Notes: generated from the letters alone by a model not told the origin. Shown: positions 19,252-45,395, counted from the stretch's first letter. The stretch is 64,000 bases of DNA from an uncultured Acidimicrobiaceae bacterium (GCA_963775055.1 CAVZHK010000005.1:511305-575304), one strand, 5' to 3'. Numbers and translations are program-made.

Positions 19252-19353
19252 GTGTCTCCACCTTTGTCGGAATGGCGCGGGCCCACCTTGGTACCGGGGA
19301 GATCTCCTCCACGGCCCCCCGCCGACCAGCATGATCCATGTTGGGGAGCCCGC

Positions 19354-25569: not shown

Positions 25570-26180
25570 CGTGCCGCCACCGGTACCGTCGACTCCCACT
25601 TGGTGGCCGCCGTCTTGAGAGAGGGGTGGCTCACCATGAGATGCCATACGACCGCACACAGCCCCTCGGTGTGAGGGGTGACATGGGCCTCATACAACGG
25701 CGGGATGATCACACAGGCGTCCGCTACGGCGGCGGTGTGGCCGCCCTCGCGGCCCACGACTCCGGTGATGGCGGCGCCGACCGAACGTGCCACCTCCAAG
25801 GCGTTGACGATGTTGGCGGAGACGTTCCGCACCGCGTCACCCCCGCCCACGGAGAACACCAGCAAACCATCCTGCGAGCCGAGCCGGGAGCCTTGCAGCC
25901 AAGCCGCGAAGGTGCTGTCCCAACCTTCGTCATTGGTCCGGGCGGTGAGCTCTGACACGTTGTCGGTGGGGGCGTAGGCCTCGAATCCGCAGATCTTGCG
26001 AAAGTCGTTGACCGCGTGGGATGCGTGGCCGGCGGATCCACCGACGCCCAGGATGAACAGCCGGCCCCCACGGGCCCGCACCGCGGCCAGCACCCCCACC
26101 ACTCGCTCGATGGCGTCGACGTCGAGCGCGTCGATCACGGCGCGGGTCTCCTCAAGGAATGACGAGGCGAAACTGGTCAT
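25566..26180 (-). CDS. gmhA: Phosphoheptose (sedoheptulose-7-phosphate) isomerase, SIS domain
   Basis: From Met 61 (MTSFASSFLEE..). RLFILGVGGSAGHASHAVNDFRK..PTDNVSELTARTNDEGW is typical of GmhA. Confidence 0.85.
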   Translation of the reverse strand: MTSFASSFLEETRAVIDALDVDAIERVVGVLAAVRARGGRLFILGVGGSAGHASHAVNDFRKICGFEAYAPTDNVSELTARTNDEGWDSTFAAWLQGSRLGSQDGLLVFSVGGGDAVRNVSANIVNALEVARSVGAAITGVVGREGGHTAAVADACVIIPPLYEAHVTPHTEGLCAVVWHLMVSHPSLKTAATKWESTVPVAAR

Positions 26181-26302
26181 GTCAGAGGTGCTCTCCCGGG
26201 GCGGGCGCGCTGGCAGGGGCGGGCGGGATGGAATCGGGCTCGAGCGAGCCCTGCCAACGGATGTCCCGCCAAGGACGCGGGCCGTGGCAGAATGGACCAC
26301 TC

Positions 26303-27565: not shown

Positions 27566-28200
27566 GCACTCCCCGCACCACGTCCTTCGCCCAGGAGCAC
27601 ACGCCATCCCGGGTCGACCGCCTCGGCCGCTGGCTGTCGACGGTGCGCATGCGGCGACTGTTGGGTTCGGTGGCCGGCAAGCGCACGGCTGACATCGGCT
27701 GCGGCCACGACGCGGCGCTGGCGCGATCTCTTTTCGAGGACGCGGGGTCCACGCTGTTGGTGGACGTGGCGCTCGACGCCCGCTTGGCCGACCGCGGCTT
27801 CACCTGCCGGGAGGGTTACCTGCCGGACATACTGGTCGGTGTGGCCGATGCAAGCCTTGACGCCATCATCTGTAACAACGTGATCGAGCACCTCGACGCG
27901 CCCGAAGACACGCTGTCCCACCTCTTCCGCCTGACCGCACCGGGCGGGGTGTGCGTAATCAACGTGCCCTCGTGGCGGGGGAAGCGCTTTCTCGAGCTCG
28001 CCGCCTTCCGGCTGGGGATGGCCCCGCCGGAGGAGATGAACGACCACAAGACCTACTACGATCCGAAAGACCTCTGGCCGTTGCTGGTGCGTGCCGGCTT
28101 CCGCCCCAGCGACCTGACGGTTCGACGCCACAAGGGTGGTCTGAACACCATCGCCTCATGCCGTCGGGGCCCGCTCAGTGACGTAACCTCAGTGAAGTGA
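27562..28200 (+). CDS. Class I SAM-dependent methyltransferase
   Basis: From Met 175 of track ORF 27040-28200 (MSTPRTT..). TADIGCGHDAAL, IICNNVIEHLDAPEDTLSHLFRLTAPGGVCVINVP. ATGA overlap with the GT2 stop. Confidence 0.8.
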   Translation: MSTPRTTSFAQEHTPSRVDRLGRWLSTVRMRRLLGSVAGKRTADIGCGHDAALARSLFEDAGSTLLVDVALDARLADRGFTCREGYLPDILVGVADASLDAIICNNVIEHLDAPEDTLSHLFRLTAPGGVCVINVPSWRGKRFLELAAFRLGMAPPEEMNDHKTYYDPKDLWPLLVRAGFRPSDLTVRRHKGGLNTIASCRRGPLSDVTSVK

Positions 28201-29013
28201 CGTCAGCGTAGGCAACGGCACCGCGGCCAACTTGAACAACAACAGGTGGCCGTTCACGTTGTGGACCAACCGACCAGCGCCGATGTTGGAAGCGAAAAGT
28301 TCGCGCCCCAGCGTGGCCACGCCCTCGCACTCGAAGGCGCCGTAGTCGTCCCAGATCACCACCCCGCCAACGCTCAACCTGGGCCACGCCCATTCCAGCG
28401 TGTCGCGGGCTGATTCGTACACATCGACGTCGATGTGGACCAACCGGAACGACCGATCCTGCACCTGCTCGGCCGTATCCTCCGGAAACATACCCACCAG
28501 TACCGCCACCTCCACCCCTTCGGCCGCAGCCAGGTCCTTGACGATCTGCGGTGAGGTGTCAGCGTGCTCGCCGCCGCGATACCACGGGTCCGCAGAGCCG
28601 GCCTTGGCTACCCCGGCGAACGTGTCACAGAGGTGAACGGAGGCGTCAAGGCCCAGCTCTTTCACCCGGCGAGCCATCAACACCCCGGTGCCGCCGCGCC
28701 ACACGCCGACCTCCAACACGTCCCCCGCCACGTCGGAGAGCTGGCCCAATTGCTCCCACAGCTCATAGCACTTGTATTGGTCAACAAAGGTGTTGCGGGC
28801 AATGGCGTCATAGGTGCGGCGAAAGGCGAGGTCGTCGTGCCACGGGGCGTAGGTCGAGGTCATGGGCACGATCAGCTCATGGGAGTAGCGGGTGTGCGGT
28901 CCCTGCAGCCGACCCCGCCGCAACAGCCGCTCGATTCGTCGATCGGTTCGCAGCCACCATTGCGCCCGCTTCGCAGCACGCCTCGCCAGATCTCGTCCAG
29001 GCATCAGAGCCAA
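28189..29013 (-). CDS. TylF/MycF (macrocin-O-methyltransferase) family sugar O-methyltransferase
   Basis: VLEVGVWRGGTGVLMA, HLCDTFAGV, VHIDVDVYESARDTLEWAWPRLSVGGVVIWDDYG. Confidence 0.85.
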   Translation of the reverse strand: MALMPGRDLARRAAKRAQWWLRTDRRIERLLRRGRLQGPHTRYSHELIVPMTSTYAPWHDDLAFRRTYDAIARNTFVDQYKCYELWEQLGQLSDVAGDVLEVGVWRGGTGVLMARRVKELGLDASVHLCDTFAGVAKAGSADPWYRGGEHADTSPQIVKDLAAAEGVEVAVLVGMFPEDTAEQVQDRSFRLVHIDVDVYESARDTLEWAWPRLSVGGVVIWDDYGAFECEGVATLGRELFASNIGAGRLVHNVNGHLLLFKLAAVPLPTLTSLH

Positions 29014-29015
29014 GG

Positions 29016-29750
29016 TTAGCCGGCGGAGTTGCCCGTCTCGCGTGAACCCAACAACAACGCCAATTCGGCCAATCCTTCGGGGCTGCCGATCTCGTAGAAC
29101 CGTCGAAAAACCTCGAAACCGGCCAGCCGGCCCTGCAGGCTGAGACGATGTTGCACGGTGGAGAGGTCGTGAGGTTCGGGCCCCGGGGGCACCTCGGCCA
29201 GTAGGACATCACGCCGCAGCGCCGACAGCCCGTAGTCGATGTGATGCAGGCCCGCGGCCGCGGGATCATCGATTTGCTTGTCATAGAGCTCGACGACCCC
29301 ATCGGCGAAGCGCACGTTGGAGCGGTCATAGGCTCCCTCATTGCGAAACACCGACAACAGCATCGGTCGGGCCGAGGCCACGAACGCCGCCCACAGCTCG
29401 GCGATGGACACATCAAGATAGGAATCGCCGTACAGCACCAGGAAGTCCTCGGCCAGCAGTCCGGCGCGGCCGGCGTCAGCCAACGCGCCGGCGGTGCCCC
29501 GCAACGTCGGGCCCTCATCGGCGTAGCGCACGGTGAGGCCCCAAGCCCGACCGTCTCCCACGTAGTCACGTAGCTGCTCGCCCAAATGGGCAATGCAGTA
29601 CACCACTTCGGAGACACCCTGGTCCGCGAGCCACTGCAGCTGCCACCAGGCAAAGGGGTGGCCCGCTACCGGCAGCAAGGCCTTGGGAATGGTCTCGGTG
29701 CGCGGCCGCATGCGGGTGGCCAGGCCCCCGGCGAGAATGGCGCATTGCAT
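29016..29750 (-). CDS. hddC: Sugar-1-phosphate nucleotidylyltransferase, D-glycero-alpha-D-manno-heptose 1-phosphate guanylyltransferase-like
   Basis: From Met 71 of the track ORF: MQCAILAGGLATRMRPRTETIPKALLPVAG (nucleotidyltransferase signature). It lies directly downstream of hddA. Confidence 0.8.
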   Translation of the reverse strand: MQCAILAGGLATRMRPRTETIPKALLPVAGHPFAWWQLQWLADQGVSEVVYCIAHLGEQLRDYVGDGRAWGLTVRYADEGPTLRGTAGALADAGRAGLLAEDFLVLYGDSYLDVSIAELWAAFVASARPMLLSVFRNEGAYDRSNVRFADGVVELYDKQIDDPAAAGLHHIDYGLSALRRDVLLAEVPPGPEPHDLSTVQHRLSLQGRLAGFEVFRRFYEIGSPEGLAELALLLGSRETGNSAG

Positions 29751-29773
29751 CCGTGGCGTGTGGGCGGACCCGG

Positions 29774-30754
29774 TCAGTCGCGCACGATGACGGTCGAGCC
29801 ATCGTGATCGAAGAAGAATCGAACTTCTTTGAGCCCCTCGGCACCCAACGCGGCGCGCAACCGTTGGGGCTCCTCGGCGTAGAACAACAGAAATCCACCA
29901 GCACCGGCACCGACCAACTTGCCACCCCGTGCGCCTTCCCGACGAGCCAGCTCGTACCACCGGTCGATGTCAGGGTTGGACATGCCCTCCGAACGCCGAC
30001 GCTTGTACTCCCAGTGCTCGTGCATCAACTCGGCGAACTCTGTGGTCCGTCCCGCTTCGAGCGCGTCCTTGATGCGTCGGCCCAGTTCATGGGTGAAATC
30101 CAGCGCGGCCCGCATGGAGGAATCCTTGGCGGTGGAGCGTTCCTTCTGGTCCTGCAGGATTGAAGCCGCCGAGCGGGCGTAACCGGTGAAGAACAGGAGC
30201 AGGTGCTCCTCCAGATCATGCAAGGTGGTGTTGGCGATGGCCAATGGGCTGGCGGTCACCCGATCATCAGGATGGAACTCGAAACAGGTGAGACCGCCGA
30301 ACGCCGCGATGTACTGATCCTGCTTGCCCACCGGTTGAGCCAGCACGTCAATCTCGATGCGGCAGGCCTCCTCAGCCAAGGCGCCGGCCGTGATGTGCTC
30401 GCGCTTGTACGCGTACAGCGCCCGCAACAGGCCCACGGTGAACGTCCCCGACGATCCGAGCCCCGTACCGGATGGGATGTCGGCCATGGAGACAATCTCT
30501 ACACCTGGCTCGATCCCCACGCTGCGAAGGGCCTCGCGGATCAACGGATGTTGCACGTCGTCGATCCGCTCGGCCCGCTCCAACGCGGAGTACTTCAAGA
30601 AGTAATCCGGCACGAATGTGGGATTGATTCCGATGTACACGTACTTGTTGATGGCGGCGGACACGATGGTGGCCCCGCCCTCACGGTAGTAGGACGGCAG
30701 GTCGGTGCCGCCCCCACCGATCGATATGCGCAGGGGGGTGCGGGTGATGAGCAT
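29774..30754 (-). CDS. hddA: GHMP kinase, D-glycero-alpha-D-manno-heptose 7-phosphate kinase-like
   Basis: MLITRTPLRISIGGGGTDLPSYY, PSGTGLGSSGTFTVGLL (GHMP motif II), GGKLVGAGAGGFLLF (motif III). Confidence 0.85.
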   Translation of the reverse strand: MLITRTPLRISIGGGGTDLPSYYREGGATIVSAAINKYVYIGINPTFVPDYFLKYSALERAERIDDVQHPLIREALRSVGIEPGVEIVSMADIPSGTGLGSSGTFTVGLLRALYAYKREHITAGALAEEACRIEIDVLAQPVGKQDQYIAAFGGLTCFEFHPDDRVTASPLAIANTTLHDLEEHLLLFFTGYARSAASILQDQKERSTAKDSSMRAALDFTHELGRRIKDALEAGRTTEFAELMHEHWEYKRRRSEGMSNPDIDRWYELARREGARGGKLVGAGAGGFLLFYAEEPQRLRAALGAEGLKEVRFFFDHDGSTVIVRD

Positions 30755-30766
30755 GCGATTGACCTC

Positions 30767-31912
30767 TCAGCTCTGACGCACGACGGTGGTGGTGCGCTGG
30801 CCAAGGAGCGCGTCGTACAGTTTCATGTGCTCCGCGGCCATTCGCTCCAGCGGAAACCGCTCGAGAACCCGTTGACGCGCCGCGTTGGCAAGCCCAGCGG
30901 TCCGCTCCCGATCAGCGGCCAGGGCCGCGAGGGCATCCACGTAAGCATCCACGTCGGTTCGATCCTCGATGAGGTAGCCGACCTCGGCGTCCACCAGCTC
31001 GCGGTTGGCGTTGACATCAGGCACCACGCACACCACCCCCATGGCCATGGCCTCGAACATCACGTAGGGAATGCCCTCGAACAAACTGGTCATCAGGAGC
31101 ACGTCGCTGCGTTGGTAGTACCCGGCCATCTCGAAGGAGACCCCGTGAAAGTGCACCACGTGAGCCAGTCCCGCTTCCGCAACCCTGCACTCGGTCCTTC
31201 GGCGCAAATTGCCGTCACCGACCACGTCGATGACCAGCGGAACCCCGCGCCGAGCCGCAGCTGCGACCACCGCAACCATGAGGTCAGGGTCCTTCTGTTC
31301 CTCCAGCCGACCAGCGAACAGAACCCGCAAGGCAACAGCAGCAGAGCGCGGCACCCGGGCACCGGCTGGCGCCCACTCCGTGCGTGCATCGATGCCGGTA
31401 TAGATCACCTGGACCAAAGCCGGATCCGCCCCGTGCGAACAGATACGACGCTTCAGATCCTCGCTGGTGGCCGAATAGGCGTCGATCAACGAGCTATAAC
31501 GGGAAGCCACATAGCGCACGTACCCGGACTCGTCGGCTTCCTCGGCGTGTTGTTGTACCACAATGACCAATTCCGGGTGGGCGGCTCGCAGCGCCGGGAT
31601 GAGGTCGAAGCCCAAGTGGCAGTTCATCATATGCACCACACGGATTCGATGCTGCTGGACGTAGTCGAGCACGAAGCCGCCGAAATCCGACTGCTGGAGC
31701 AGATCGGGCAGGTTCCACACCCCCTCCGCCAGTGGTTCGATGTCGCACACGAAATGGTTGATCGGCGTCGCTGCGGTGGTGATGAGGTGCAGCGCGAACC
31801 GCTCGCGGTCCAACGTGCGGAACCAATCCACCGTGCCTTTGTCGGCTCCGCCGGGCACCGCCCATGGGGCCAGGTAGAGCACAGGAATTCGGTCATCCCC
31901 TGGCCCGATCAT
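30767..31912 (-). CDS. GT4-family glycosyltransferase
   Basis: C-terminal LLMTSLFEGIPYVMFEAMAMGVVCVVPDVNANRELV (E-x7-E region). ATGA overlap with the upstream gene. Confidence 0.85.
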   Translation of the reverse strand: MIGPGDDRIPVLYLAPWAVPGGADKGTVDWFRTLDRERFALHLITTAATPINHFVCDIEPLAEGVWNLPDLLQQSDFGGFVLDYVQQHRIRVVHMMNCHLGFDLIPALRAAHPELVIVVQQHAEEADESGYVRYVASRYSSLIDAYSATSEDLKRRICSHGADPALVQVIYTGIDARTEWAPAGARVPRSAAVALRVLFAGRLEEQKDPDLMVAVVAAAARRGVPLVIDVVGDGNLRRRTECRVAEAGLAHVVHFHGVSFEMAGYYQRSDVLLMTSLFEGIPYVMFEAMAMGVVCVVPDVNANRELVDAEVGYLIEDRTDVDAYVDALAALAADRERTAGLANAARQRVLERFPLERMAAEHMKLYDALLGQRTTTVVRQS

Positions 31913-34443
31913 GATCGCAGGCGGCCGGCCGCAGCCCGCCGGAGCTGAAGTTCGAGCAGATGCCGGCCCTCACGCAGAGTGCGCCGGATTCCGCCCCCCG
32001 GGGGTGTCGGCCACCCGCGGGTGTCCCCGTCGACGAAACCCGCCACATCCTCCGTGGCCAACCCTCGCGCCGCTGCCACCCGGAGATCCGCCTCAACGCC
32101 GGCGTCCACCCGCTGGGCTCCGACCACTCGAAAGACCGGATGGTCCCCAGGTCGCTGGTGAACCCTCATGGACGCAGGATCGGACGAGGTCGGCGGGTCA
32201 GGCAGCACCACGGCCTCTACGAAGCCGAACAGCCGCTGGGCGACCCCTGCCGCTTCGGCTGCGCACAAATGAAGATCATACCGTGCAGTACGACGATCAT
32301 AGGAGCGGTAGAGGGCCAGCGTTTCCTGGTTGGGAATGGCCAGCAGGGTAGCGACGGGGCCCACCACCTCGAAACCCAATTGACGATCCGGTGAGGGGTC
32401 GGTCGAGTACAGCCAGGCTCGACGCCGGGGGTGAAACAGTTCCACCAGGTCCACCCCCTCGCTACCGGCCTGCAGGGCCCACCCCACGACGCCGACCAGA
32501 CGCGCCATGGGATCGGATCGGCCCCTTCGAAACAACGGCAGGGCGCCCGTGGTGCAGCGGATCTGACCTCTGGAGCGCCACCGGTACAGCAGCACCCATC
32601 CGGGCCGGGAACCCGGACCCCACCAGGTGCGGTCTTGCAGCGCAGTCGGCGCCGCAACGTCCCCCAGCATGGGTCGGGCTCGGCCCCATCCGATGATCCG
32701 CCCACTGCTGGCGCCTCGTACCGCCACCGTGTTGAGTCCGGCCTGATCCACCACCGCCGGGCCGGTCTCGCAGGACCACCCGGCTGACGCTGCCATCCCC
32801 AAGAGGTCGGGGTGCGTGCTGGTGACGGAACCGCCCCCTTCCCGTGCCCTCCCAATTCTTTCAACGGCCAGAAATGTCGGGAACGAACGTGGCAGCGGCG
32901 CCACCTCGCACCGCGCCCGATACAGAAAGCGGCCGATCAGCGAATCGGGCACGTTGGGGCGCCAGGGCTGGAAACCGTGGCGCTGGCGCAGGGCATCAAC
33001 CCCGTTAACCCACCGGACGTAGAGCGACTCGTGTTCGGCCAGCGCCACCTCGCTGAGAAATCCCAGCAGATCGCCTGTGCCCGATGGCCCTTCGGAGTAC
33101 TCGAAGCCCAAGACCCCGCCGGTCGTGCGGAACAGCGGCACCGTCCCGGGATAGGGGCACGTGTCAATCGAGCCGAGCGCCACCCGCAGCGGAAAGCGGG
33201 CCCCGTCAAGGGGGGCAGTGGGCGTGGCCAACGCCACCAGCCGAGCCACCGGGTCCGCCACCAGTTCGATGACCTGACTGTCCCGCGGAGCCCAAGCCCC
33301 GAGGCGGGTGCCGCCGGCTGACGCTGCGGGGGCGAGCTCGGCCCATTGCCGGTGGACCGAGTGTGCCTCCGGCAAGGTCACGAACCGGCCCAACGGGTTC
33401 GCTCGTCCGTCGGTCCCGCTCACCTGCCCTCTGATGCTATGGACCACCAGGCCCAGTGGTCCGTACTCTGACGCCCCGGCAAGAAGCGCCAACAGGCCGT
33501 GTTCCCCCGGTTGAGAGGCCGCTTCGAGGATGGCTTCGCGGGGGGCGATCACCGCCAAGAGGTCAACGCGCTGGCCAGGCTGCACCGCCATCATCCGCCA
33601 GTGCGGTTGACGTTCCGGGGAATTGACCAGAGCGATGACCCCGGCACCGTCGCCGATGCGCAACGCCGCTTTGGCCTCCACGCCTGTGGCCAAGACCTGG
33701 GCGGCACTTTCCTGGCCCAGGCAAGCCACCCAGGGTGCGTCCGGAACTCCCGTTCGGGGGAAGGCCTGGTGCCGCCAGTCGACGTTGATGCACACGCCCA
33801 CGGCCACCGGTTCGCAGCGCACCTCGCGGGCGGGGCCGTCCGACAGGGATTCTCGCTCTGCTGCGCGGGTGATCGACCCCATCGTGGCACTGAGTTCACC
33901 GAGCGGCCGAAGAAGATGGAGGGGGACATCGAGCACCCGCAAGGAGAACCCCTCCTTACCCGCGACGTCATGGAGCCGGCGACACAACTGCCCGAGATCA
34001 TTCACGTCCTTGGTGACGAGGGCGTCCAGCCGGGAACGCCAGATGGCGCGAAACACCGTGGGAAATTGGTGTGTGCCGCCGTCCGACGCGGTATGGAAAG
34101 ACCCGCCGAGCGACGCCGTAGCAGGGCCCAACGTCATCGAGCCGCTTCGGGGACCGGCCCGCAGCAGCAGGCAATGATCAGCGACGCGGTCAAGGGCACC
34201 TTCGAGTTGCTGCAGGAACTGCTCGGCCGGGGCGTCGCCCTCCTCCAGTGCCATCACCCAGGGCGGACCCGAACCCGGTTGCTGACCGAGGACACGCCAC
34301 CCGGCGGCGGCTCGGGATTGTCGGGCCAGCGCCGCTACCAGTCGATGGCGCAGCACCGCTCCCGACCCGGGCACGATGACCACCTCCAGGCCGCTGACCC
34401 TCGGGGCAACGCCGTTCCCACGTACCGGAGACACGCTGGTCAT
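31909..34443 (-). CDS. 844-aa soluble protein of unknown function; C-terminal half has repeats resembling LYR..YT(T)D..GF units
   Basis: From Met 27 of track ORF 31909-34521, forming ATGA overlaps at both ends (34440-34443 and 31909-31912). No signal peptide, TM segment or catalytic motif recognised. Confidence 0.7.
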   Translation of the reverse strand: MTSVSPVRGNGVAPRVSGLEVVIVPGSGAVLRHRLVAALARQSRAAAGWRVLGQQPGSGPPWVMALEEGDAPAEQFLQQLEGALDRVADHCLLLRAGPRSGSMTLGPATASLGGSFHTASDGGTHQFPTVFRAIWRSRLDALVTKDVNDLGQLCRRLHDVAGKEGFSLRVLDVPLHLLRPLGELSATMGSITRAAERESLSDGPAREVRCEPVAVGVCINVDWRHQAFPRTGVPDAPWVACLGQESAAQVLATGVEAKAALRIGDGAGVIALVNSPERQPHWRMMAVQPGQRVDLLAVIAPREAILEAASQPGEHGLLALLAGASEYGPLGLVVHSIRGQVSGTDGRANPLGRFVTLPEAHSVHRQWAELAPAASAGGTRLGAWAPRDSQVIELVADPVARLVALATPTAPLDGARFPLRVALGSIDTCPYPGTVPLFRTTGGVLGFEYSEGPSGTGDLLGFLSEVALAEHESLYVRWVNGVDALRQRHGFQPWRPNVPDSLIGRFLYRARCEVAPLPRSFPTFLAVERIGRAREGGGSVTSTHPDLLGMAASAGWSCETGPAVVDQAGLNTVAVRGASSGRIIGWGRARPMLGDVAAPTALQDRTWWGPGSRPGWVLLYRWRSRGQIRCTTGALPLFRRGRSDPMARLVGVVGWALQAGSEGVDLVELFHPRRRAWLYSTDPSPDRQLGFEVVGPVATLLAIPNQETLALYRSYDRRTARYDLHLCAAEAAGVAQRLFGFVEAVVLPDPPTSSDPASMRVHQRPGDHPVFRVVGAQRVDAGVEADLRVAAARGLATEDVAGFVDGDTRGWPTPPGGGIRRTLREGRHLLELQLRRAAAGRLRS

Positions 34444-36005
34444 GAACGGCTCCGATGGAGGCGGCTCCACAGCATCCGCCGGGACGTTTCCGCCTTCATC
34501 AACAACCGAGCAGCCTGCCACGAGGTCGACCTCAGCACCAGATGGTGGTTCGCTTCAACCTGACGTAACCGCTGCACCTCGTGTTCGGCGCTGAGCAACT
34601 CCCGGTGCAGTTGTTGCATGCGCTCCTCCAAATCGCCCGCCACACGATGCTGGCGGACCAACTCCGCGTGCAGCCCGCATAGGAGGAAGGGCCACTCACG
34701 GATGGCCTCGGGCAGCACCTCGGCGTGGGCCTGCAGCACGAGATCGTGGCTGGCGCCAACGGGAAAGGTGCGCAACATCGAATCTGAGGACACCCGATAA
34801 CGCAACAACGGCTGTGGCACCGTCTCGACGTGATGGCCGGAAAGCAGCAGGCGGCTCAGCAGTTGCCAATCCTCGTAGGCCAGGGTGCGGTGCTGGTGGA
34901 ACCCGCCCAGATCAAGAACCGGTCCCCGCCGGAACATGGCCGCGGCCCCGCCGATGAAGTTGTCCAGCGCGCTCAGCGATCCGGCCTCTGCAGCAAAGAG
35001 CCACTGCGAAGACTCTTCCAATGCGGCCAGACACCCCAGCGCGTCGGGGAAGACCTTGAACCCGACGGCCACGGCCACGGCACCGGTGGCCTCCATGGCG
35101 GCGGCCATGCGCCGGAGATAATCGGGCTCGGCCTCGTCGTCATCGTCGAGGAAGGCCACCACATCGTGAACGGCGGCCCGCAGGCCGTGGTTGCGGGCCG
35201 CGCCCAACCCCTGGTTTTCCTGACGGAGTACCCGGATCGGCACCTCGATCTGCAAATCCTCGATCGCCCTAAGGTTTTCCACCGATGCGGCATCCGTGCT
35301 GCCATCGTCCACCACGATGATCTCCTCGGGCAGCCGACTCTGGGCCAGCAAGCTGTCGAGGGCCCGACGCACCAGAGCGGGTCGTTCATAGTGCGTGATG
35401 ATCGCGGTGATCGCCTCAACCGACGGGCCCGGGGCCGGAAGCGGCGGTGGCGGGGCGCTCAAGGCTGCATGGCCCCGATGACCGATGTCCACGGTTGCCG
35501 CACATTGCTCGAGTACCGCTCGCTCGAGTTGGTCACCGACCGCCTCCTCCAACGAGCCCACCCGACGCCCCTCGTTCTCGCGCTGGTCTGCGGCCGGCGG
35601 ACCCACCACCACCAAGGCGGTGTCGAGGAACGCTGCACCCTGACGGCGTTGGGCCGCAACAGCCCACAAGAGTCCACCGTGGCGGGGAGCGACCACCGTG
35701 CAACCGGCGATGTCGGCGAAACGCCCCAGCAACCGCGCCACAGTGCTGCCCGGAGCCAACACGCCCGGCCCCACCGGTACCGCCGGGGAACCCGACGTCG
35801 CCCAGGTATCCCCTGAGTCCGAGTCCGAGGATTGGCCGTCGATGCCGAAGGTGCCCAGACGAATCTCGTGCAACGGTCTCCCGCTGGCGACCACCTCTGC
35901 CGCCAGAGCACGAATCTGCTCACGGTACGCTTCGCAGGCTGGGTGGCGCCCACCAGGTACGACGATGGCCACTGGCCCCCGCCGGGGATCAGCGGTCATA
36001 CCCAA
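34440..36005 (-). CDS. GT2 glycosyltransferase with ~200-aa N-terminal extension and C-terminal coiled-coil tail
   Basis: ITAIITHYERPALVRRALDSLLAQ..IIVVDDGSTD..AFLDDDDEAEPDY (GT2). Tail: LHAELVRQHRVAGDLEERMQQLHRELLSAEHEVQRLRQVE..STSWQAARLL. Confidence 0.8.
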   Translation of the reverse strand: MGMTADPRRGPVAIVVPGGRHPACEAYREQIRALAAEVVASGRPLHEIRLGTFGIDGQSSDSDSGDTWATSGSPAVPVGPGVLAPGSTVARLLGRFADIAGCTVVAPRHGGLLWAVAAQRRQGAAFLDTALVVVGPPAADQRENEGRRVGSLEEAVGDQLERAVLEQCAATVDIGHRGHAALSAPPPPLPAPGPSVEAITAIITHYERPALVRRALDSLLAQSRLPEEIIVVDDGSTDAASVENLRAIEDLQIEVPIRVLRQENQGLGAARNHGLRAAVHDVVAFLDDDDEAEPDYLRRMAAAMEATGAVAVAVGFKVFPDALGCLAALEESSQWLFAAEAGSLSALDNFIGGAAAMFRRGPVLDLGGFHQHRTLAYEDWQLLSRLLLSGHHVETVPQPLLRYRVSSDSMLRTFPVGASHDLVLQAHAEVLPEAIREWPFLLCGLHAELVRQHRVAGDLEERMQQLHRELLSAEHEVQRLRQVEANHHLVLRSTSWQAARLLMKAETSRRMLWSRLHRSRS

Positions 36006-36029
36006 ATCGCGCCATAGCGAAGAGACAGG

Positions 36030-37945: not shown

Positions 37946-39175
37946 TTGAACGACTCCCGATATTTCCTGCCTGTTGGCTATCAGGAACGACTCGAACCGT
38001 TCTACTTTGACGATTCGGGTGACCCTGCCGATGTGTGGCAACCCGACGTCTACTCCGTTGCCGGCACGTTGGCGGATCGCCTTCACGCCACCGCGATTGT
38101 GGACGTTGGATGCGGGCGAGCAACGAAACTGCTCCGTCTTGCGAACGTCGCTCCCATCACCGGCATCGACTACGCCGACAACATACGGTCCTGCATCCAA
38201 GACTACCCCGAGCATTGCTGGATTGAATGCGATCTTGAGCAGACTCCAACTTGGACATCGGCGATCCCCGATGGAGCGATAGTAATCTGTAGCGATGTTA
38301 TCGAACATCTTATTGATCCCACGAATCTGCTACAGGGGTTGTTCGCCGCGCTCAACAGGATTCACGCTGTTGTACTTTCGACACCGGATCGAGATGCCAC
38401 CCACGGGCCAAACCATCTTGGTCCCCCACCGCATGTGACCCATGTTCGGGAGTGGTCCCATGGGGAACTGGCCAAGCTGCTGCGATCGCATGAAGCGGAG
38501 GTGTGGGTGGCTGGCCTCACCCGCTCGTGCTCGAGTCGCCTCGAGCTTGCTACTTCACTTTTCGTATTGCGCAAGACCTCCGGGTCAGTTCATCAGCCCG
38601 AGGGCGCGGCTGTTTCCACCGATTCATGGGGCGACTGGTCAGGACCCGCGGATCGGCGACTGGTGTCGCCAGCCCACGGCTCGATCGAGGAACATCTCGC
38701 CGAGGCTCAGCGTCAGGGCGCAACCCGCATCGAAGTGACGGACCTGCAACTTCTCGACGCGATCGCGGGTCGCGCCCCAGCGACGGAGCCCGTCACCTTG
38801 CAGCTTCCGGCGTTGCGGAGCACTTCAATTGACTCTGACGGCGGATCCCGCCCGGCGACGGCCGCGATGAACCTCGTGGCGGTGCCCGCTGACCTTGGTC
38901 CGTATGAGGCACAGGAGCGCATCCATGCCAACATCGCGGTTGCGGTCACCGGTGCTGATGCGTCCTCGAGCTGGTGGCCCCTGCAAAGCACCATTGGCCT
39001 TCGGCGCCGCTTGTCCGAATCACTGGCTGAGCTTTCCACCGTGCTGCGTTCTATTGAGAGCCTGAAGCAGTGGATTGATCAATTGGAGGCGACCAAGCTT
39101 GATCTCATGGCCGAGATCAGAACCCTCAACCACGAGGCAGAATTGCGCGCAGCGCACCTGGACACCTCGCACTAA
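37946..39175 (+). CDS. Class I SAM-methyltransferase with a long C-terminal extension ending in a coiled coil
   Basis: TTG start preceded by GAAAGGAAAG. IVDVGCGRATKL, VICSDVIEHLIDPTNLL..VVLSTPDR. Tail: LSESLAELSTVLRSIESLKQWIDQLEATKLDLMAEIRTLNHEAELRAAHL. Confidence 0.75.
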   Translation: MNDSRYFLPVGYQERLEPFYFDDSGDPADVWQPDVYSVAGTLADRLHATAIVDVGCGRATKLLRLANVAPITGIDYADNIRSCIQDYPEHCWIECDLEQTPTWTSAIPDGAIVICSDVIEHLIDPTNLLQGLFAALNRIHAVVLSTPDRDATHGPNHLGPPPHVTHVREWSHGELAKLLRSHEAEVWVAGLTRSCSSRLELATSLFVLRKTSGSVHQPEGAAVSTDSWGDWSGPADRRLVSPAHGSIEEHLAEAQRQGATRIEVTDLQLLDAIAGRAPATEPVTLQLPALRSTSIDSDGGSRPATAAMNLVAVPADLGPYEAQERIHANIAVAVTGADASSSWWPLQSTIGLRRRLSESLAELSTVLRSIESLKQWIDQLEATKLDLMAEIRTLNHEAELRAAHLDTSH

Positions 39176-39207
39176 GACCTTGCGGACTACAGTTCGCCCG
39201 CCGGGCT

Positions 39208-40383
39208 GTGCCGGCTTCCACCCCGATGACCGCAACGCCTGACCCCGACCCCTCCCCGGCCCGCCCACCGTTTCTCACCGTTGTGCTGCGAACCCAGGGC
39301 CGTCGCCCGATCCTGCTCGGAGAGGCCCTGGCCAGCTTGTCATTGCAGGTCAGTCTTGATTTCGAGGTCTGTGTCGTTCACCATCACAGCGCCGATTTCC
39401 TCCAGAACGAGCAGGACGCAGCGGCAGTGGCGCAGTCCGTCGCCTCCGCGCCTTCCACGGTCCAGGCGCGGATCCGGGTCCTCGAGGCCCCACCGGGCAC
39501 CAGGGGGGTGCCGCTCAACGTCGGGATCGCTGCCGCCCGCGGCACCTACGTAGCGTTTCTCGACGACGACGACCTGGCCCTGCCGGAGTGGGTACTGACC
39601 TTCAAGGAGGCGGCCGGTGCCGCACCGGGAACCCTCATACGGGCCCGCGCCCTGGCACAGGACTGGCGCATGGAGGACGGATCGGCCCGGCCGATAGCTG
39701 GGCCCCGAGCGGCGTACGACCAGCCGTTCGACCTCGTTGACCATCTTCACGAGAATCGGACGCCGATCTGCACCTTGGCGTGGCCGAGCAGCGTATTCGA
39801 AGAGCACCAGGTGCGAGCGGACGAGTCGCTACCGGCATTAGAAGACTGGGAACTCTTGTTGGCAGCGGCCCCCCTTTGCGGGATCACCGAGGTGAACGAG
39901 CAAACCAGCCTTTATCGCCGCTGGGTGACCGACGGGGGCTCCAGGTCCGAGGAGGGCGAGGCAGCTTGGAACGACGCCCGGATCCGGGTTCGTCTCCGTA
40001 GTCTGCAGCGCGATCTGTCATTGCCGGGGCCCTTTTCCGCCCAGGTACACGCCGCTGCGGACGAGCTGGCCCACTTCCGACGGTTCGCCCATGAGCTCGC
40101 TGCGGAACTGGGCCTGGCACTGGAACCCGCAACGGAGCTCAGGCCGGATTCGGTGCCGCCCTCGGTGGCGTTGATCAAGAGTGAGTTCGAGCGGCTCCAT
40201 CGTGATCTGGCTGCGAGCCAGTGCCGCGCCGGCGAACTGAGCGAAGCACTATTGAGCACCTCGAATGAGCTGTCTTTGCTGAAGCGCTCTCCGAATGCGC
40301 TCCTGGATGCGGCCCGCCAGGCGTTGCTCGGTCGCCTCGGCATCAGACCGTCCAGCCGCAAAGGCCGATCGAAATGGCCATGA
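39208..40383 (+). CDS. GT2 glycosyltransferase with helical/coiled-coil C-terminal tail
   Basis: FLTVVLRTQGRRPILLGEALASLSLQ.., AFLDDDDLALPEW (DxD). Tail: LIKSEFERLHRDLAASQCRAGELSEALLSTSNELSLLKRS. Confidence 0.8.
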   Translation: MPASTPMTATPDPDPSPARPPFLTVVLRTQGRRPILLGEALASLSLQVSLDFEVCVVHHHSADFLQNEQDAAAVAQSVASAPSTVQARIRVLEAPPGTRGVPLNVGIAAARGTYVAFLDDDDLALPEWVLTFKEAAGAAPGTLIRARALAQDWRMEDGSARPIAGPRAAYDQPFDLVDHLHENRTPICTLAWPSSVFEEHQVRADESLPALEDWELLLAAAPLCGITEVNEQTSLYRRWVTDGGSRSEEGEAAWNDARIRVRLRSLQRDLSLPGPFSAQVHAAADELAHFRRFAHELAAELGLALEPATELRPDSVPPSVALIKSEFERLHRDLAASQCRAGELSEALLSTSNELSLLKRSPNALLDAARQALLGRLGIRPSSRKGRSKWP

Positions 40384-41453
40384 GACCAGGATCCTTCCTG
40401 GCTCCAAGCGCGGTGGCCAACGGCGCCCGAAGGCTGCTTCGCCGGATCGGTGGTGCCTTTCTCGGACTGCCCCTACTTATTGATAGAGGTCGGGCACGCG
40501 CTATGCAACGGGGGGCCAGGCGACGCACAGGTCCCAGAGGGCGCGGACCTGTGCCCACGGGTTGGCAGGAGGCCCCCGCAGGGCCGTGGGACGCGTTGGG
40601 CGCGAACAACGGTGCCTGTTGCAACATTTGCCGGTGGGACGGCGCCGCGTTCGACGGGCCGGCCCATTGTGAGGGGGCCCGCTGCCCACAATGCGGTTCG
40701 ATCGCCCGGGACCGGTTCCTGTTCTGGGCTTTGCGGTTGGCGGTGGCTCATCCGGAGGAGGGAGCTGGCGCACTGCGGGTGTTGGAGACCAGCCCGCGTC
40801 TCGACGGCCGCTACCGCCGGGCCATGGGCGGCTGGTTCGACTATCTCTGCTCGGACTTCGATGAGCGGGCCCACGCCGGCACCATCCAGCTCGACCTGCA
40901 GGACATCGCCCTGCCTAGTGACAGCTTCGACGTCGTTCTCAGTGCCCACGTCCTCGAGCACGTGCCCGACACCGGGGCCGCACTGGCCGAGCTATACCGG
41001 ATCCTTGCCCCCGGTGGCACCCTGTTGCTGCAGGTTCCGGTCCTGCAGGAGCACACCGCGGCGCCAACCCAACCCGAGTTTCACGGTGACAACACCCCGG
41101 TGGCCTGGCGCTTTGGCCCCGAGTTGAGCGACCAGCTGGCCGCCGCCGGGTTCGACGTGCAGCTGCTGGCCACCGACGCGTTGCTGGCAGCGGCTCAATG
41201 CACGGGTGACGGCGCGTCCCGGCCATGGGGGCCTGAAGTGTCCCCGGAGTTTGACGCGGAAGCGGTTATCCGGGGCCTTCGCCAGACCGTTGGCGACCCG
41301 GGTGAGGCTGACGGCCAGGGCCAGGGCAGCACCCTGCGCCCCGAGTTGTGTGGGGTTGCTGACGCTGCCGTCGCCGCCCGTCACGGTTTTGAGCCGGCGT
41401 ACATGTTCCTCACCTGGGCCTGTTCCAAGCCGGAACTGCCTTCTCAGCGCTAG
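40374..41453 (+). CDS. Class I SAM-methyltransferase with N-terminal Cys4 zinc-ribbon-like motif
   Basis: CCNICRWDG..CEGARCPQCGS, then FDVVLSAHVLEHVPDTGAALAELYRILAPGGTLLLQVP. Start uncertain (ATG 40374 overlaps the upstream stop; alternative ATG 40503). Confidence 0.75.
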   Translation: MAMRPGSFLAPSAVANGARRLLRRIGGAFLGLPLLIDRGRARAMQRGARRRTGPRGRGPVPTGWQEAPAGPWDALGANNGACCNICRWDGAAFDGPAHCEGARCPQCGSIARDRFLFWALRLAVAHPEEGAGALRVLETSPRLDGRYRRAMGGWFDYLCSDFDERAHAGTIQLDLQDIALPSDSFDVVLSAHVLEHVPDTGAALAELYRILAPGGTLLLQVPVLQEHTAAPTQPEFHGDNTPVAWRFGPELSDQLAAAGFDVQLLATDALLAAAQCTGDGASRPWGPEVSPEFDAEAVIRGLRQTVGDPGEADGQGQGSTLRPELCGVADAAVAARHGFEPAYMFLTWACSKPELPSQR

Positions 41454-43231
41454 CGAGCAACGCAAACAAGCGGCGCTCGAACGCGGGCAGATCAAAGTCC
41501 GCGGCTCGTTGGCGGGCGGCAGCAGCCATCACCTGGCGACGGTGTGGGTCCGCGATCAGCGCTGCGGTGTGTTCGACCAACTCGTCGATTGAGGCGAAGT
41601 GGTGGCCTTCCACCCCGTCATCGAACACCTCGAGCTGACCGGCCATCCCGATGGCCACGGGCACCGCGCCGGCGGACATGGCCTCCACGGTGGAGATGCC
41701 GAAGTGCTCCATGCGTTCGGGATGGGCCTCGGGGTCCTCTCCCAGGCCGGTGGCGTGCCAGTAGATCGACGCCCTGGCAAAAAGGTCACGGAGCGTGGCG
41801 GCGGGGGCGTTGGCGTGCACCTCCACCAGCAGGTCTTCGACGGCCGCCCGCACCTGGTCCAGGTACGCGGCGCCCTCATCGTCACAGCCGCCCACCAGGT
41901 GCAACGCCCACCCGTCGGCCTTGCCGGCACCAACCAGCCGTCCGAAGGCGTCGATCAGTTCCAGCTGACGCTTGCTGTGGCCGGCTTTGGGTGGGAAGAA
42001 CCGTCCAACGTGCAGGATGAGCGGTTCTTTGTCGCCGCTGGGTTGGCCCGCCACCGGTGGATTGAGCACCTCCGACGATCGGCCCCACAGACGCTCGACC
42101 CACGTGGCGGTGAAGCGGGAGTTGGCCACCACCTGCTGATAGGTGTCGAGGAAGTCACGCGGCGCCGCAGCCGCGGACAGCGGTTGGTGCACCGCCTGCA
42201 GCAACCGGCTGTACCACGGCCCCACCAGCACCCCCAGCACCGACAATCCGAGCACCCGTTGATCACTGGCGGGTCCGGGGGGCAGGTGGGTGCCACTGCG
42301 CAACACCAGCCGCGTCGGACCATCGTCTACTGACCCGGCGCGGTCCGCCAGGAGCGGTGCCACCGGGGCAGTGACCCCGGTGAACGGCACCCGGGGCCAA
42401 AATCGCCATGCGTGGGCGGCACCGGGCCAAAGCGTCCGCCGGGCCATCGTCGCCATGCCGGCTGGCAATGGCCCTGCCGCGCTGATCAGTCGAGGCCGCA
42501 GCGTCGGGGTGCGCCGGGCCCGGGTTCAGTGACAGCTCAACCTCGATACCGTCGGGCTGGTCCGGGCCGGGCCGCCCGACCAACACCGTGACCCGCCACG
42601 GAAAGTGGTTACGCCACCACCCCCATTTCCGGCGAATCGACGTCGATTCGACCCTACGGGGCAAAAAGCGCCGTAGGGCCCCTGACCGGTGTCGGTCGAC
42701 CGCGGTCAGTGAGATCTGCAGCTCTCCGCAGCCGTCGGTCCAACGATGGGTCAGCGGGCCGCGCCGCTCGGGCGCGTACACCCCGCCCACCCAGCTGGCC
42801 GGTTCCAGGTCGGTGCCGGTCATCTTGGCCAGCCGACCCACCGCCCGAAGCACGAAACGTCGCCACCCCGTCGGCGGCGGCGCCCCCACCACCGGGAAGT
42901 GCACCACGTACATCCCCCGTGGCGCCCGGTTTGCCAACACACTGCCGTAGCTGGCGTTGATGAACACGTCGTAGTCTGCTGACGCGGCCTCCACCGCGCT
43001 GGGCGAGGGCTCCACCGATCGCCAGCCGACCGCGCCCAGGTCCAGCCCCAGCCGCTCGGCCAGCGCCGCCAGGTCGGGCGAATCGTGGCCGATCAGCTCG
43101 ACCCGATGCCGTGATGACAGCGCCTCAGCGATGCCACCGGCGAACTTCTCGCCACCCCCGCCGGTGGGCCAGAACCGGTTGTACACCCCGATCCGCAGCC
43201 CCTCAAGGCCGGAGCCCCCGGAGCCGGTCAC
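41410..43231 (-). pseudogene. Large GT4-family glycosyltransferase with one frame break (between ~42300 and 42520)
   Basis: N-terminal half is in ORF 42263-43645 from GTG 43231 (LRIGVYNRFWPTGGGGEKFAGGIAEAL). C-terminal half is in ORF 41410-42468 (ILHVGRFFPPKAGHSKRQ..MEHFGISTVEAMSAGAVPVA). These two halves of one GT-B fold are in different frames. Confidence 0.75.
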
Positions 43232-44466
43232 CGAGCGTCGGGGTCCACAGGGGCGCCGCTCCAGTGCCCGTGCAGCGCCACGATGCCCCTGGGCTCCCCC
43301 GGTCGGCCGGCGTCGACCTCGAAGCGCACCAGACGCAGCTTGCGGTCGATGGCGTGCTCGCCGGAGGCGTCGAGGATGGCCGCGCCCAGGGTGTACGCCC
43401 CCGGGACCAGCATCAACGCCGGGATGTCCAACGCCACGTTCCCCTCGCCGGTGATCTTGTCGGCCATGGACGTGCCCACCGTGGAGGGGTTGGCCGCCAA
43501 GGTGCCGTCGAGGGTGTGGATGGAGAAGCGCGAACGTGGGGGTGGCGGTGGGCTCATCGGTCTCGTAGCCCAGGCGCAGGCGAACCGGCTGACCGCTGCG
43601 GACCTTGGGCACGTGCTCGCCCAGCTCGGTGACGGCCACCGCCAACTCCCCGACCCAGCATCGGGACCGCCTCCATAGTGATGTCGGTCAGGCGGACCTC
43701 GGGCCGGGCAGCACGGGACACCATGGCCGACTGCCCGAAATCCAGCCGGGTCAGATAGGCATCGACCACCTGCTGAGGCTGCCCGATGTGGGCCAACTTG
43801 CCCCGATCCAGCCACGCCACGTGGTCACACATGGCGGCCACGGTGGAGAGCGCGTGGCTGACCACCACCACCGTGCGCCCCGCGTCGGACAGCTCCTCGA
43901 AACGCTGATGGCAGCGACGCTGGAACTCCTCGTCGCCCACCGCCAGGACCTCGTCGACCAGCAGCACCTCGGGCTCCACGTTCACCGCGATGGAGAACCC
44001 GAGCCGCACGTACATGCCCGACGAGTAGGTCTTGATGGGCTGGTCGATGGCCTCGATCACCTGGCGGCCGGCGAAATCGACGATCTGGTCGAAGCGGGCG
44101 TCGATCTCCTTGCGCCGCAAGCCGAGGACCGCGCCGTTGAGGTAGACGTTCTCGCGCCCGCTCAGCTCGGGATGGAAGCCCGCGCCCAGCTCGATCAGCG
44201 CCGACAGCCGCCCGTTGACCCGCACGCTGCCCTTGTCCGGTCGGAGGATGCGGGCCATGCACTTGAGCAGCGTGGACTTGCCCGATCCGTTCTAGCCGAT
44301 CAGCCCGAAGGTGGAGCCCACCGGGACCTCGAAGGTCACATCGTCCAGCACCCAATTCTCGTCATAGGTGCCGCGGCCGCCCTCGCAAGACCGCCGACTT
44401 CAGCGACTGGTTGCGCTCGTGGTACAGCCGGAAGCGCTTGGAAACGTGGTCGACCTCGATGGCCAT
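43228..44466 (-). pseudogene. wzt: Polysaccharide ABC-exporter ATPase with C-terminal carbohydrate-binding (Wzt_C-like) domain; 3 or more frame switches plus an in-frame TAG
   Basis: MAIEVDHVSKRFRLYHERNQSLK (ATG 44466), then a shift near 44385, ..FEVPVGSTFGLIG*NGSGKSTLL (TAG at 44292-44294), Q-loop/signature/Walker B in ORF 43554-44258, and a C-terminal domain split over two more frames (VTELGEHVPKVRSGQPVRLRLGY / FSIHTLDGT..LRLVRFEV). Confidence 0.8.
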
Positions 44467-44477
44467 CGACGGGGCGC

Positions 44478-45395
44478 TCACAACTCCTCCGCCAGGCGGG
44501 GCTCGAAGCGGCTGAACACCCAGACCCCCAGGGCCAACATGGCGACCGCCCAACCGGCCACATAGGCCGACCAGCCGAAGTCGGGCAAGCGCAGGTCGTA
44601 CAGCACCCGCGGAACCCTTCGATCAGATCCGACCAGCGGATTCAGGCGGTACAGAGCGAGCTGTAGCCCTTGAGCTCATCGTCGACAGCTTGATCGTGGT
44701 AGGCGATCGGGCAGTGTAGAAGAGCACCTGCAGCATGATGCCCACGAAGTACTGAACGTCGCGGAAGTACACGTTGGCCACGGCAAGGATCAGGCCCACG
44801 CCCAGCGCCAACGCCGCCTGGATTGCCAGCAGCAGCGCCACCATCGGCAGCCACGGCAGCACCATGTTGCCGGCGATCAGCAGGATGATCAGCGCCACCG
44901 ACAGCTCCATCAGGGTGGTGAAGCCGAGCCGCGCCGATTTGGAGACGACCACATGCCGCGTGGGAAGTACACCTTCGAGATCAGGACGCCTGATTCGACC
45001 ACCGAGCCGGCGGCCCCGTTCATGACAGCCGGCGAAGAACGTCCAGGGCACCAACCCGCTGATCAGGATACAGGGCGAAGGATTGCAGGCCCGCACGGAT
45101 CACCCTTGGGCGGGGACACCTTCAGCACCCAGAAGAAGAACGAGAACACCAACACCGTGGTCAACGGGTTGAGCAGCGACCAGAACCACCCGAGGACGGA
45201 GCCCTTGTACTGACCCCGGATCTCCCGCAGCGTCAGCGCCTTGGCCAGCTCCCTGGCCTCCACGTATTCCGCGATGCTTGCCACGAACGTTCTTGGTGCC
45301 TTCAGTCCCGATGGGATCAGTGGCCCCGGCCCGACGCTCGGGGGAGGCCGGGAAAGTCTACGAGGCCGGGCGGCGCAGGGTCGAGATCCCCTCAA
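44478..45395 (-). pseudogene. wzm: ABC-2 type polysaccharide exporter permease with at least 4 frame switches
   Basis: ELAKALTLREIRGQYKGSVLGWFWSLLNPL (ORF 45063-45395). LISGLVPWTFFAG, MNGAAGSVVESGVLISKVYFPR (another frame), VANVYFRDVQYFVGIMLQVLFY, then PIAYHDQ..LYRLNPLV..VFSRFEPRLAEEL-stop (own translation, stop 44478-44480). Confidence 0.75.

Follow-up and report, generated by a model that had tools for sequence, protein, structure and literature searches.

An 844-residue, lineage-restricted protein encoded among the glycosyltransferases of a putative Wzm/Wzt glycan locus in Acidimicrobiales

Glycans of the ATP-binding cassette (ABC) transporter-dependent type are polymerised in the cytoplasm, and a Wzt with a carbohydrate-binding module (CBM) together with methyltransferases is the hallmark of those systems that are cap-terminated and length-regulated (PMC3482155, PMC9445017). 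The carbohydrate-binding domain (CBD) of Wzt is an established cytoplasmic glycan-binding module of the Wzm/Wzt pathway (PMC9445017). The polymerases of this pathway are multiprotein complexes, and an open reading frame (ORF) of a Klebsiella ABC-dependent cluster that had no assignment by homology founded a new glycosyltransferase (GT) fold, GT137 (PMC11231755). Here we describe a protein, X, encoded in a stretch of 64,000 nucleotides from an uncultured Acidimicrobiaceae bacterium (GCA_963775055.1 CAVZHK010000005.1:511305-575304; hereafter the window, with positions counted from its first letter). The coding sequence of X (844 aa) lies on the minus strand (34443..31909; ATG at 34443-34441, TGA at 31911-31909) between a GT2 and a GT4 gene. 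We tentatively read X as a cytoplasmic, membrane-peripheral and probably non-catalytic glycan-binding accessory subunit of a Wzm/Wzt polymerase complex in Acidimicrobiales.

Catalytically dead accessory GT-A domains are used by some multi-GT-A proteins. A non-catalytic accessory GT-A domain or partner is present in lysyl hydroxylase LH3 (6fxm), COLGALT1 (9evk), mimivirus R699 (9dyt) and the chondroitin synthase pair CHSY3-CHPF (9o4g), which were the top, albeit weak, Foldseek matches of X. Like these, X has a tandem of alpha/beta domains, tentatively GT-A-like, of which one or both lack a DxD motif. Unlike them, X shows no detectable sequence similarity, has a full DxD in neither domain, carries a β-repeat array instead of an oxygenase as its third domain, and is a bacterial protein that would act on a lipid-linked polymer. 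The setting of X, with wzm, wzt plus CBM, methyltransferases and several GTs, is shared with WbdD of E. coli O9a, the coiled-coil terminators of Klebsiella O4, O7 and O12, and the Wzt CBD; X is likewise cytoplasmic and putatively membrane-peripheral, with a C-terminal amphipathic helix, and is proposed to organise the polymerase and handle the nascent chain. In contrast to WbdD and WbbB, X has no long coiled coil, the sole long helix predicted by AlphaFold2 (AF2) being residues 817-843. No terminator module of the WbdD/WbbB type (kinase, methyltransferase or 3-deoxy-D-manno-octulosonic acid (Kdo) transferase) was detected in X with Pfam/NCBIfam, and Wzt_C (PF14524) had no match in X, its pieces or its family members. 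The host differs from those of O-antigen systems in being a Gram-positive-type actinobacterium, with a LytR-CpsA-Psr (LCP) ligase at one locus.

The array of X compares best with DUF5648, a (β3-α)3 domain with three β1-β2-α-β3 units that is proposed to bind glycans (PMC11299179) and is found in the C-terminal, receptor-binding domains of the O-antigen-targeting proteins BSAP-2/-3 and in auxiliary domains of GH70 α-glucanotransferases (bioRxiv 10.1101/2025.01.06.631476). Packing as a three-bladed β-α propeller is a further characteristic of DUF5648. X is predicted to share with DUF5648 the tandem β1-β2-α-β3 units of ~44 residues, and its units R1-R3 cover 135 aa, compared with 134 positions in the Pfam model. 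However, X is cytoplasmic, whereas the known carriers (GH70 enzymes, Bacteroidales BSAP-2/-3 toxins) are secreted; it has roughly eight units instead of three, fused to GT-A-like domains, and it has invariant residues of its own (HPD, E668, H671). We found no description of a cytoplasmic protein that joins an expanded array of the DUF5648 type and an amphipathic tail to a pair of degenerate GT-A-like domains.

The coordinates of the initial annotation (31909-34443) are correct, and the gene lies on the minus strand; the plus-strand translation of 31909-34443 is riddled with stops. The minus-strand frame is also open further 5', from a GTG at 34521 (34521..31909). In the family alignment, the homologues begin at the position equivalent to the ATG at 34443, which supports the ATG start. 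This ATG overlaps the TGA of the upstream GT2 gene (34442-34440) in an ATGA at 34443-34440, and the TGA of X overlaps the ATG of the downstream GT4 gene (31912-31910) in an ATGA at 31912-31909. Both overlaps, read directly, are as first reported, as are the GT2 and GT4 calls (Table 1), and the 4-nt overlaps are conserved at homologous loci, in support of translational coupling with the neighbours. No RNA run was found to contain the stretch. The peptides quoted in the initial annotation were all found in X, at residues 19, 435, 617, 666 and 709.

The genome has a guanine-plus-cytosine (GC) content of 67%, at which long spurious ORFs are abundant, and indel errors are present elsewhere in the window; X might thus be a chance open frame, or two genes might have been fused or mis-assembled. 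This reading is hardly tenable, being already refuted by the homologues and by an independent contig. Eight full-length homologues (837-871 aa) from independent assemblies are collinear with X and share 51 invariant residues, and the same length and collinearity exclude the fusion of two genes, a doubt raised at the outset. The GC contents at the three codon positions (0.75/0.56/0.77 for GC1/GC2/GC3) are coding-like, uniform along the entire ORF and the same as in the neighbouring genes. Logan contig L001 (7.1 kb), which comes from an independent assembly, is 99.93% identical to window positions 29859-36955, with 0 gaps; therefore, the frame of X is not an assembly artefact. The five differences in this region are all G in the window and A in the Logan contig, and two of them produce R292H and R809H, the only differences between the two versions of X.

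The highest 19-residue Kyte-Doolittle mean of X was 1.46, and no transmembrane segment, signal peptide, Tat motif or hydrophobic N-terminus was found in the protein, which supports the cytoplasmic location proposed initially. Known DUF5648 domains occur in secreted GH70 enzymes, BSAP toxins and an endolysin, so that X might be exported non-classically as an extracellular wall- or glycan-binding protein, like most DUF5648 carriers, and merely be co-encoded with the GTs. We consider this very improbable, given the lack of export signals, the GT-A-like N-terminal domains, which are typical of cytoplasmic enzymes, and the conserved translational coupling to cytoplasmic GTs.

When 1.84 billion cluster representatives were scanned exhaustively with HMMER, 10 relatives were retrieved (E 1.8e-106 to 6.6e-5; 31-42% identity), including the 8 full-length proteins. 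Family members were labelled P0002-P0010, the family alignment, which also served as the multiple sequence alignment (MSA) for AF2, comprised 10 sequences, and invariant residues were counted among the 8 full-length members. Scanning one genome per GTDB species yielded three loci, all in metagenome-assembled genomes (MAGs) labelled Acidimicrobiales bacterium; the remaining members came from JGI/Logan metagenomes of freshwater sediment, sediment and drinking water. Searches with sub-alignments returned these three MAG loci, a contig from a metagenome and no new sequences, leaving the family at 10. Word-indexed protein searches, with X alone or with the family alignment, returned only the near-identical Logan copy of X; the word index seems to be swamped by the Ala/Gly/Arg-rich composition of the protein. 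With about 10 homologous clusters, the term ‘orphan’, used initially, was too strong: X belongs to a conserved, lineage-restricted and very small family, whose placeable members are all from Acidimicrobiales MAGs or metagenomes. X had no match in Pfam or NCBIfam, nor did its 200-aa pieces at E<=10, and none in PHROGs or PADLOC, so that none of the four resources holds a model of the family. PDB sequences gave no match with either the single protein or the family profile as the query; there is no solved relative, and the confident match to a characterised family that would have refuted the initial reading was not found. No paralogue of X was found within the window. Overall, X represents a new, narrow family assembled from divergent known folds.

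The AF2 model of full-length X, computed on the 10-sequence MSA, had a mean predicted local distance difference test score (pLDDT) of 67.9. Its N-terminal half forms two alpha/beta domains, N1 and N2, with pLDDT values of 30-85. In Foldseek searches of this half against the PDB, all top matches were GT-A or nucleotidyl-/cytidylyltransferase folds, at weak scores (E 4.5e-3 to 7e-2; probability up to 1.0; target-normalised template modelling (TM) score 0.2-0.46), and the longest alignments (470-535 columns), to the tandem GT-A proteins R699, LH3, COLGALT1, K4CP, PmHS2 and LARGE1, span both domains. In hhalign, N1 aligned with the neighbouring GT2 family (PF00535) over β1, α1, β2 and the DxD strand, at a poor P of 0.0095. 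In this expected register, ‘GLEVVIVPG...RL..AL..Q.R’ of N1 pairs with ‘vtAvvTHy.RP..RRAi.SLL.Q’ of the GT2, and ‘PWVMALEEGD’ with ‘VVAFLDDDD’, so that EEGD faces DDDD. The resemblance of the N-terminus to a degenerate GT-A, noticed from the start, is thus tentatively upheld at these scores.

Unlike PF00535 proteins, however, X has no Pfam match, and neither X nor its family members matched PF00535, PF13641 or PF10111. The DxD position reads EGD, SGD, AAD or ESD among the full-length members, with D70 alone invariant; the nucleotide-binding DDGS segment corresponds to a gap of ~30 columns in the hhalign alignment of N1 with the GT2; and the acceptor-side half is unrecognisable. N2 gave no significant hhalign match to GT2 families, contained no conserved acidic motif among the full-length members and is the least conserved part of X, with 22% mean pairwise identity. 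Eight invariant residues lie in the N-terminal half: R34, P61, W62, D70 and R132 of N1, and further G182, G266 and W282. These models and alignments suggest that N1 and N2 are GT-A-like but no longer have the canonical motifs (DxD and nucleotide-binding), and N2 is probably a pseudo-GT-A or accessory domain.

The same residues bear on a possible enzymatic role of X in the pathway, with N1 as an active, divergent GT-A (Asp70, Arg34, Arg132) or with a new site in the C-terminal half (H544, D546, E668, H671); the latter could belong, for example, to a GT of new fold, to an enzyme that terminates the chain or to one that modifies the glycan. In either case the repeats would hold the acceptor chain. 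The register of N1 with the DxD region of the GT2 and the one invariant Asp kept there are in favour of an enzyme, whereas E, S or A occupies the first DxD position in the family members, the DDGS segment is deleted and N2 is so poorly conserved. Taken with the evidence from the C-terminal half and the locus given below, we judge an enzymatic role, the main rival to the accessory reading, to be rather unlikely.

The C-terminal half is the most conserved part of X. Of the 51 invariant residues it contains 43, among them H544, D546, R588 and D595 as well as W622, R629, T631, D644, E668, H671 and W677, these last seven lying in R1-R3. Modelled alone (residues 385-812), it reached a pLDDT of 80.8 and was predicted as a series of units of three strands each; in several of them a short helix separates the second strand from the third. 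In the AF2 models, R2 comprises strands at 664-671 and 676-680, a helix at 684-687 and a strand at 692-701; in R4, the corresponding elements are at 768-774, 782-784, 787-792 and 796-804; R1 and R3 show the same order, with a loop or short helix in place of the helix. Compared end to end with hhalign, the units were related at P 1.3e-4 (R0 and R4), 4.7e-4 (R2 and R4), 1.5e-3 (R1 and R3) and 7e-3 (R1 and R2), with scores above those of 100 of 100 column shuffles. The repeats emerge only if the unit boundaries are taken from the predicted secondary structure; comparing X with itself by BLASTP, or its profile with itself by hhalign without guidance, gave no significant off-diagonal match. The loosely repeated units of the initial annotation are therefore weak but real at these P values, although the array exceeds the four named there.

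Pfam did not recognise the relationship to DUF5648. PF18885 (gathering score 25 bits) had no match in X, in its pieces at E<=10, in the 10 members or in a concatenation of R3+R2+R1. As a reference, we composed a three-repeat DUF5648-like sequence and validated it with Pfam (181.9 bits, E 8e-54, model positions 1-134). In hhalign, the family profile aligned with this sequence in the repeat register over 79 columns (P 1.5e-4, probability 51%), and the score of 37.0, compared with a shuffle null of 12.4 +/- 2.1, was reached by 0 of 100 shuffles. Over two units, ‘LVELFHPRRRAWLYSTDP..GFEVVG’ of X is paired with ‘PVYRFYNPSTGDHFYTTD..GWRYEGIA’. The predicted topology of R1-R3 also agrees with tandem β1-β2-α-β3 units of ~44 residues. 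The likeness to DUF5648 suggested initially is thus retained on the strength of profile, score and topology, but all 10 members fail the Pfam model, and we regard the C-terminal half, as modelled, as a distant, expanded relative of DUF5648 and not as a member by the Pfam criterion.

Foldseek found no credible fold match for the C-terminal model in the PDB; no DUF5648 structure was found there by sequence, which accounts for the empty result. The best PDB matches of this half, a vault protein, kelch and signal peptidase, had probabilities of at most 0.07 and were dismissed as noise. An LH3-like layout, in which a GT and an accessory GT precede a C-terminal HxD...H iron- and 2-oxoglutarate-dependent (Fe/2OG) oxygenase, was rejected since the PDB search returned no double-stranded β-helix or cupin, and the oxygenase idea was also dropped for want of a conserved Arg after H671. 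Against BFVD, the sole high-probability match was A0A8S0I430 (probability 1.00; E 5.2e-3; 252 columns; TM score 0.23), an unnamed viral protein of 427 aa, which may carry a DUF5648-type array. In favour of an enzyme, the invariant polar residues stand at single sites and not in every unit, and the lack of a PDB fold match leaves room for a new fold; against it, the likeness of the C-terminal half is to a binding module that is non-catalytic. The array is followed by a C-terminal tail with a hydrophobic moment of 0.5-0.7 and a net positive charge in 9 of 10 members, its sequence itself not being conserved.

The locus was compared by mapping the window proteins onto all homologous loci with tblastn. 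The conserved block contains wzm, wzt (with Wzt_C), a large GT4, a divergent methyltransferase and GT2, and then (GT2)-X-GT4. The same GT4 directly follows X wherever the locus extends beyond the end of X (the window, L002, L003, L004, both copies in L005, L008, L009 and L010), and the overlap between the X stop and the GT4 start is usually 4 nt. The coiled-coil-tailed GT2 precedes X in the window, L002, L004, the second copy in L005 and L006, but is not directly 5' of X in L008, L009 and the first copy in L005; the co-occurrence check called for initially thus shows the GT4 as the constant partner and the GT2 upstream in only some loci. The GT2-methyltransferase pair adjoins X in L002, L005, L008 and L009. 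Wzt_C is annotated in L002 and L005, and wzt including its C-terminal region lies at 43237-44481 in the window. By analogy with described systems, the block probably specifies an ABC-transporter-dependent, cytoplasmically polymerised and probably cap-terminated glycan pathway (PMC3482155; PMC9445017; PMC11231755). L002 additionally encodes the LCP ligase and an Rv3811-like amidase, which fits an actinobacterial wall-linked glycopolymer. L005 (= L007, JBJXFH010000176.1), from an Acidimicrobiales MAG, contains two diverged X-GT4 pairs ~5 kb apart within one cluster (10001-12601 and 17973-20516), with X copies of 866 and 847 aa, of which only the second is preceded by the coiled-coil GT2; this arrangement points to a pair of polymerase modules acting in parallel, or to two glycans with one shared exporter.

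Coiled coils of the kind seen in the upstream GT2 serve as molecular rulers in ABC-dependent systems. This GT2 has an N-terminal extension of ~190 aa, a GT2 domain at residues 201-361 and a helical, coiled-coil-like C-terminal tail, and by analogy it may be a length-determining or terminating component of the pathway. Its residues 1-190 have no assigned domain, and the heptad-like helical tail (residues ~440-521) ends with ‘...STSWQAARLL...’. X could instead be the chain-length determinant, a ‘glycan-binding ruler’ in which the length of the array, and not a coiled coil as in WbdD or WbbB, would set the polymer length before capping by the methyltransferase and recognition by Wzt. Consistent with this, Wzt with a CBM region and conserved S-adenosylmethionine (SAM) methyltransferases are hallmarks of cap-terminated, length-regulated systems (PMC3482155, PMC9445017), and X has an extended multi-unit array and is coupled to putative polymerase GTs. 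We nevertheless find this reading doubtful: it is purely inferential, X has no terminator domain or long coiled coil, the coiled-coil-like tail belongs to the neighbouring GT2, and the array length is nearly constant (X 837-871 aa) though the loci differ.

Between loci, X is 29-45% identical, compared with 57-72% for the GT4 (L002-L005, L008-L010); the values for other neighbours are 82-95% for the ATPase part of Wzt, 55-77% for the methyltransferase and 61-73% for the large GT4. Judged from these identities, X evolves much faster than the neighbouring genes. Scaffold, chain-length factor and new enzyme class were put forward initially as candidate roles. A glycan-binding accessory role fits the divergence and the context somewhat better than that of a core enzyme: the true GTs beside X are far more conserved, and the cluster already has at least five recognisable GT genes. 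For an enzyme, the precedent of GT137 from the Klebsiella ABC-dependent cluster can be cited (PMC11231755).

If X is such an accessory subunit, its terminal amphipathic helix would keep it at the inner membrane face, and the pseudo-GT domains N1 and N2 would dock the partner GT4 and GT2, in the manner of accessory GT domains in other GT complexes. The repeat array would bind the growing lipid-linked glycan in the cytoplasm, and this grip could make polymerisation processive, set or sense the chain length, or deliver the completed chain to Wzm/Wzt. Adaptation to locus-specific glycan structures would then account for the rapid divergence of X. Several points weigh against this proposal. The evidence for the N-terminal folds is weak (Foldseek E >= 4.5e-3, pLDDT 30-85, 10-sequence MSA), and the invariant R34, D70 and R132 of N1 could form a working ligand or catalytic site. 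H544, D546, E668 and H671 are not in every unit and could mark a catalytic or metal site instead of a lectin site. The DUF5648 model of Pfam does not recognise X, and glycan binding by DUF5648 itself is a proposal (PMC11299179), while unassigned ORFs of such clusters have proved to be new GT folds (GT137, PMC11231755). It is unlikely, in our view, that X founds a new functional class, either as a C-terminal enzyme of new fold (H544, D546, E668, H671) or as a lectin-array ruler or processivity clamp. The ruler variant, in which a cytoplasmic DUF5648-like array would grip the nascent lipid-linked polymer and dictate its length by a mechanism unlike known coiled-coil rulers, is a more speculative version of the accessory reading.

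The other features of the window are listed together with those of X in Table 1. Beyond the GT4, the minus-strand run also encodes epimerases/dehydratases and several more methyltransferases and GT2s in addition to the sugar-supply genes of the table. The ~10 kb at 20798-30754 (minus strand), between the GT4 and a dihydrolipoamide-dehydrogenase-like gene, includes a heptose-type sugar-nucleotide pathway. L002 has no such supply module after the GT4 and has a single unknown 516-aa gene there; since the module is present here and not in L002, the glycan made by the window locus is probably a methylated heptose-containing variant. The 524-aa membrane protein (36030-37604) gave only a faint hint of Wzy_C_2 (E 0.14), and this and the 593-aa membrane protein are candidates for a ligase, a polymerase or a GT-C-like enzyme.

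The wzm, wzt and large GT4 genes at 41437-45284 encode products with 65-95% identity to L002/L005 proteins, interrupted by at least seven frame switches (Wzm -3/-2/-3; Wzt -2/-3/-1/-2; large GT4 -1/-2). A short-read contig (run X1) that otherwise matches at 100% has one base fewer at 42484, precisely where the GT4 changes frame. The splits are therefore probably assembly indel errors of the long-read type, rather than pseudogenes or decay of the system; the X region is free of such indels (0 gaps vs L001). Further envelope-glycan genes are found at 47335-55475, including a 575-aa ORF without family assignment.

Table 1. Features of X and of the window, with positions counted from the first letter of the window.
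Feature	Residues of X	Position	Strand	Basis or remark
N1, truncated degenerate GT-A-like domain	~17-185	33889..34395	minus	AF2, Foldseek, hhalign, conservation
N2, second alpha/beta domain	~205-345	33409..33831	minus	AF2, Foldseek, conservation
β-rich array, roughly eight β-β-(α)-β units	~385-806	32026..33291	minus	AF2, conservation
Unit R0, related to R4	428-470	33034..33162	minus	hhalign P 1.3e-4
Invariant H544-P545-D546	544-546	32806..32814	minus	helix start within another β-β-α-β unit
Units R1-R3, DUF5648-like three-unit core	612-746 (135 aa)	32206..32610	minus	
Unit R4, related to R0 and R2	763-806	32026..32157	minus	hhalign P 1.3e-4, 4.7e-4
Basic amphipathic helix	817-843	31915..31995	minus	AF2, hydrophobic moment
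GGAG, Shine-Dalgarno-like motif		34450..34453	minus	6 nt 5' of the ATG of X, inside the end of the GT2 gene
Upstream GT2, 521 aa		34440..36005	minus	PF00535 E 2.9e-31; stop overlaps the start of X
Downstream GT4-type glycosyltransferase, 381 aa		30767..31912	minus	PF00534 E 2.8e-26, PF13439
Polytopic membrane protein, 524 aa		36030..37604	minus	first gene of the minus-strand run containing X; no family match
Methyltransferase (409 aa), GT2 (391 aa), methyltransferase (359 aa), divergent		37946..41453	plus	
Large GT4, wzt (ABC ATPase + Wzt_C-type CBM region), wzm		41437..45284	minus	split over several frames
GHMP (HddA-like heptose) kinase, nucleotidyltransferase, TylF-type O-methyltransferase		28189..30754	minus	3' of the GT4
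HddA-like GHMP kinase		29774-30754	minus	
Nucleotidyltransferase		~29016-29960	minus	
SIS isomerase		25566-26360	minus	
Transaldolase		23295-24014	minus	
Polytopic membrane protein, 593 aa		20795-22576	minus	no Pfam/NCBIfam match
Subtilase		45846-47147		
Split-looking GT2		47335-48720		
rmlD-like and rmlB-like genes		48726-50605		
YfhO/PTPS-related membrane protein, 1034 aa		52371-55475		
tRNA-Leu(GAG)		401-491		

Acidimicrobiia abound in freshwater, sediment and soil, mostly as uncultured bacteria, and to our knowledge their cell-envelope glycans are essentially unstudied. The locus reveals a Wzm/Wzt pathway of the O-antigen type in Acidimicrobiales, with a large, conserved, lineage-specific protein between putative polymerase glycosyltransferases. 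Should X prove to be a pseudo-glycosyltransferase that binds glycans, it would put a DUF5648-type module to use in the cytoplasm for the first time and provide a bacterial example of pseudo-GT scaffolding, and it would offer a new route to processivity or chain-length control without a coiled-coil ruler. If it is an enzyme, it would found a new carbohydrate-active family. Either way, X gives DUF5648 a testable functional context.

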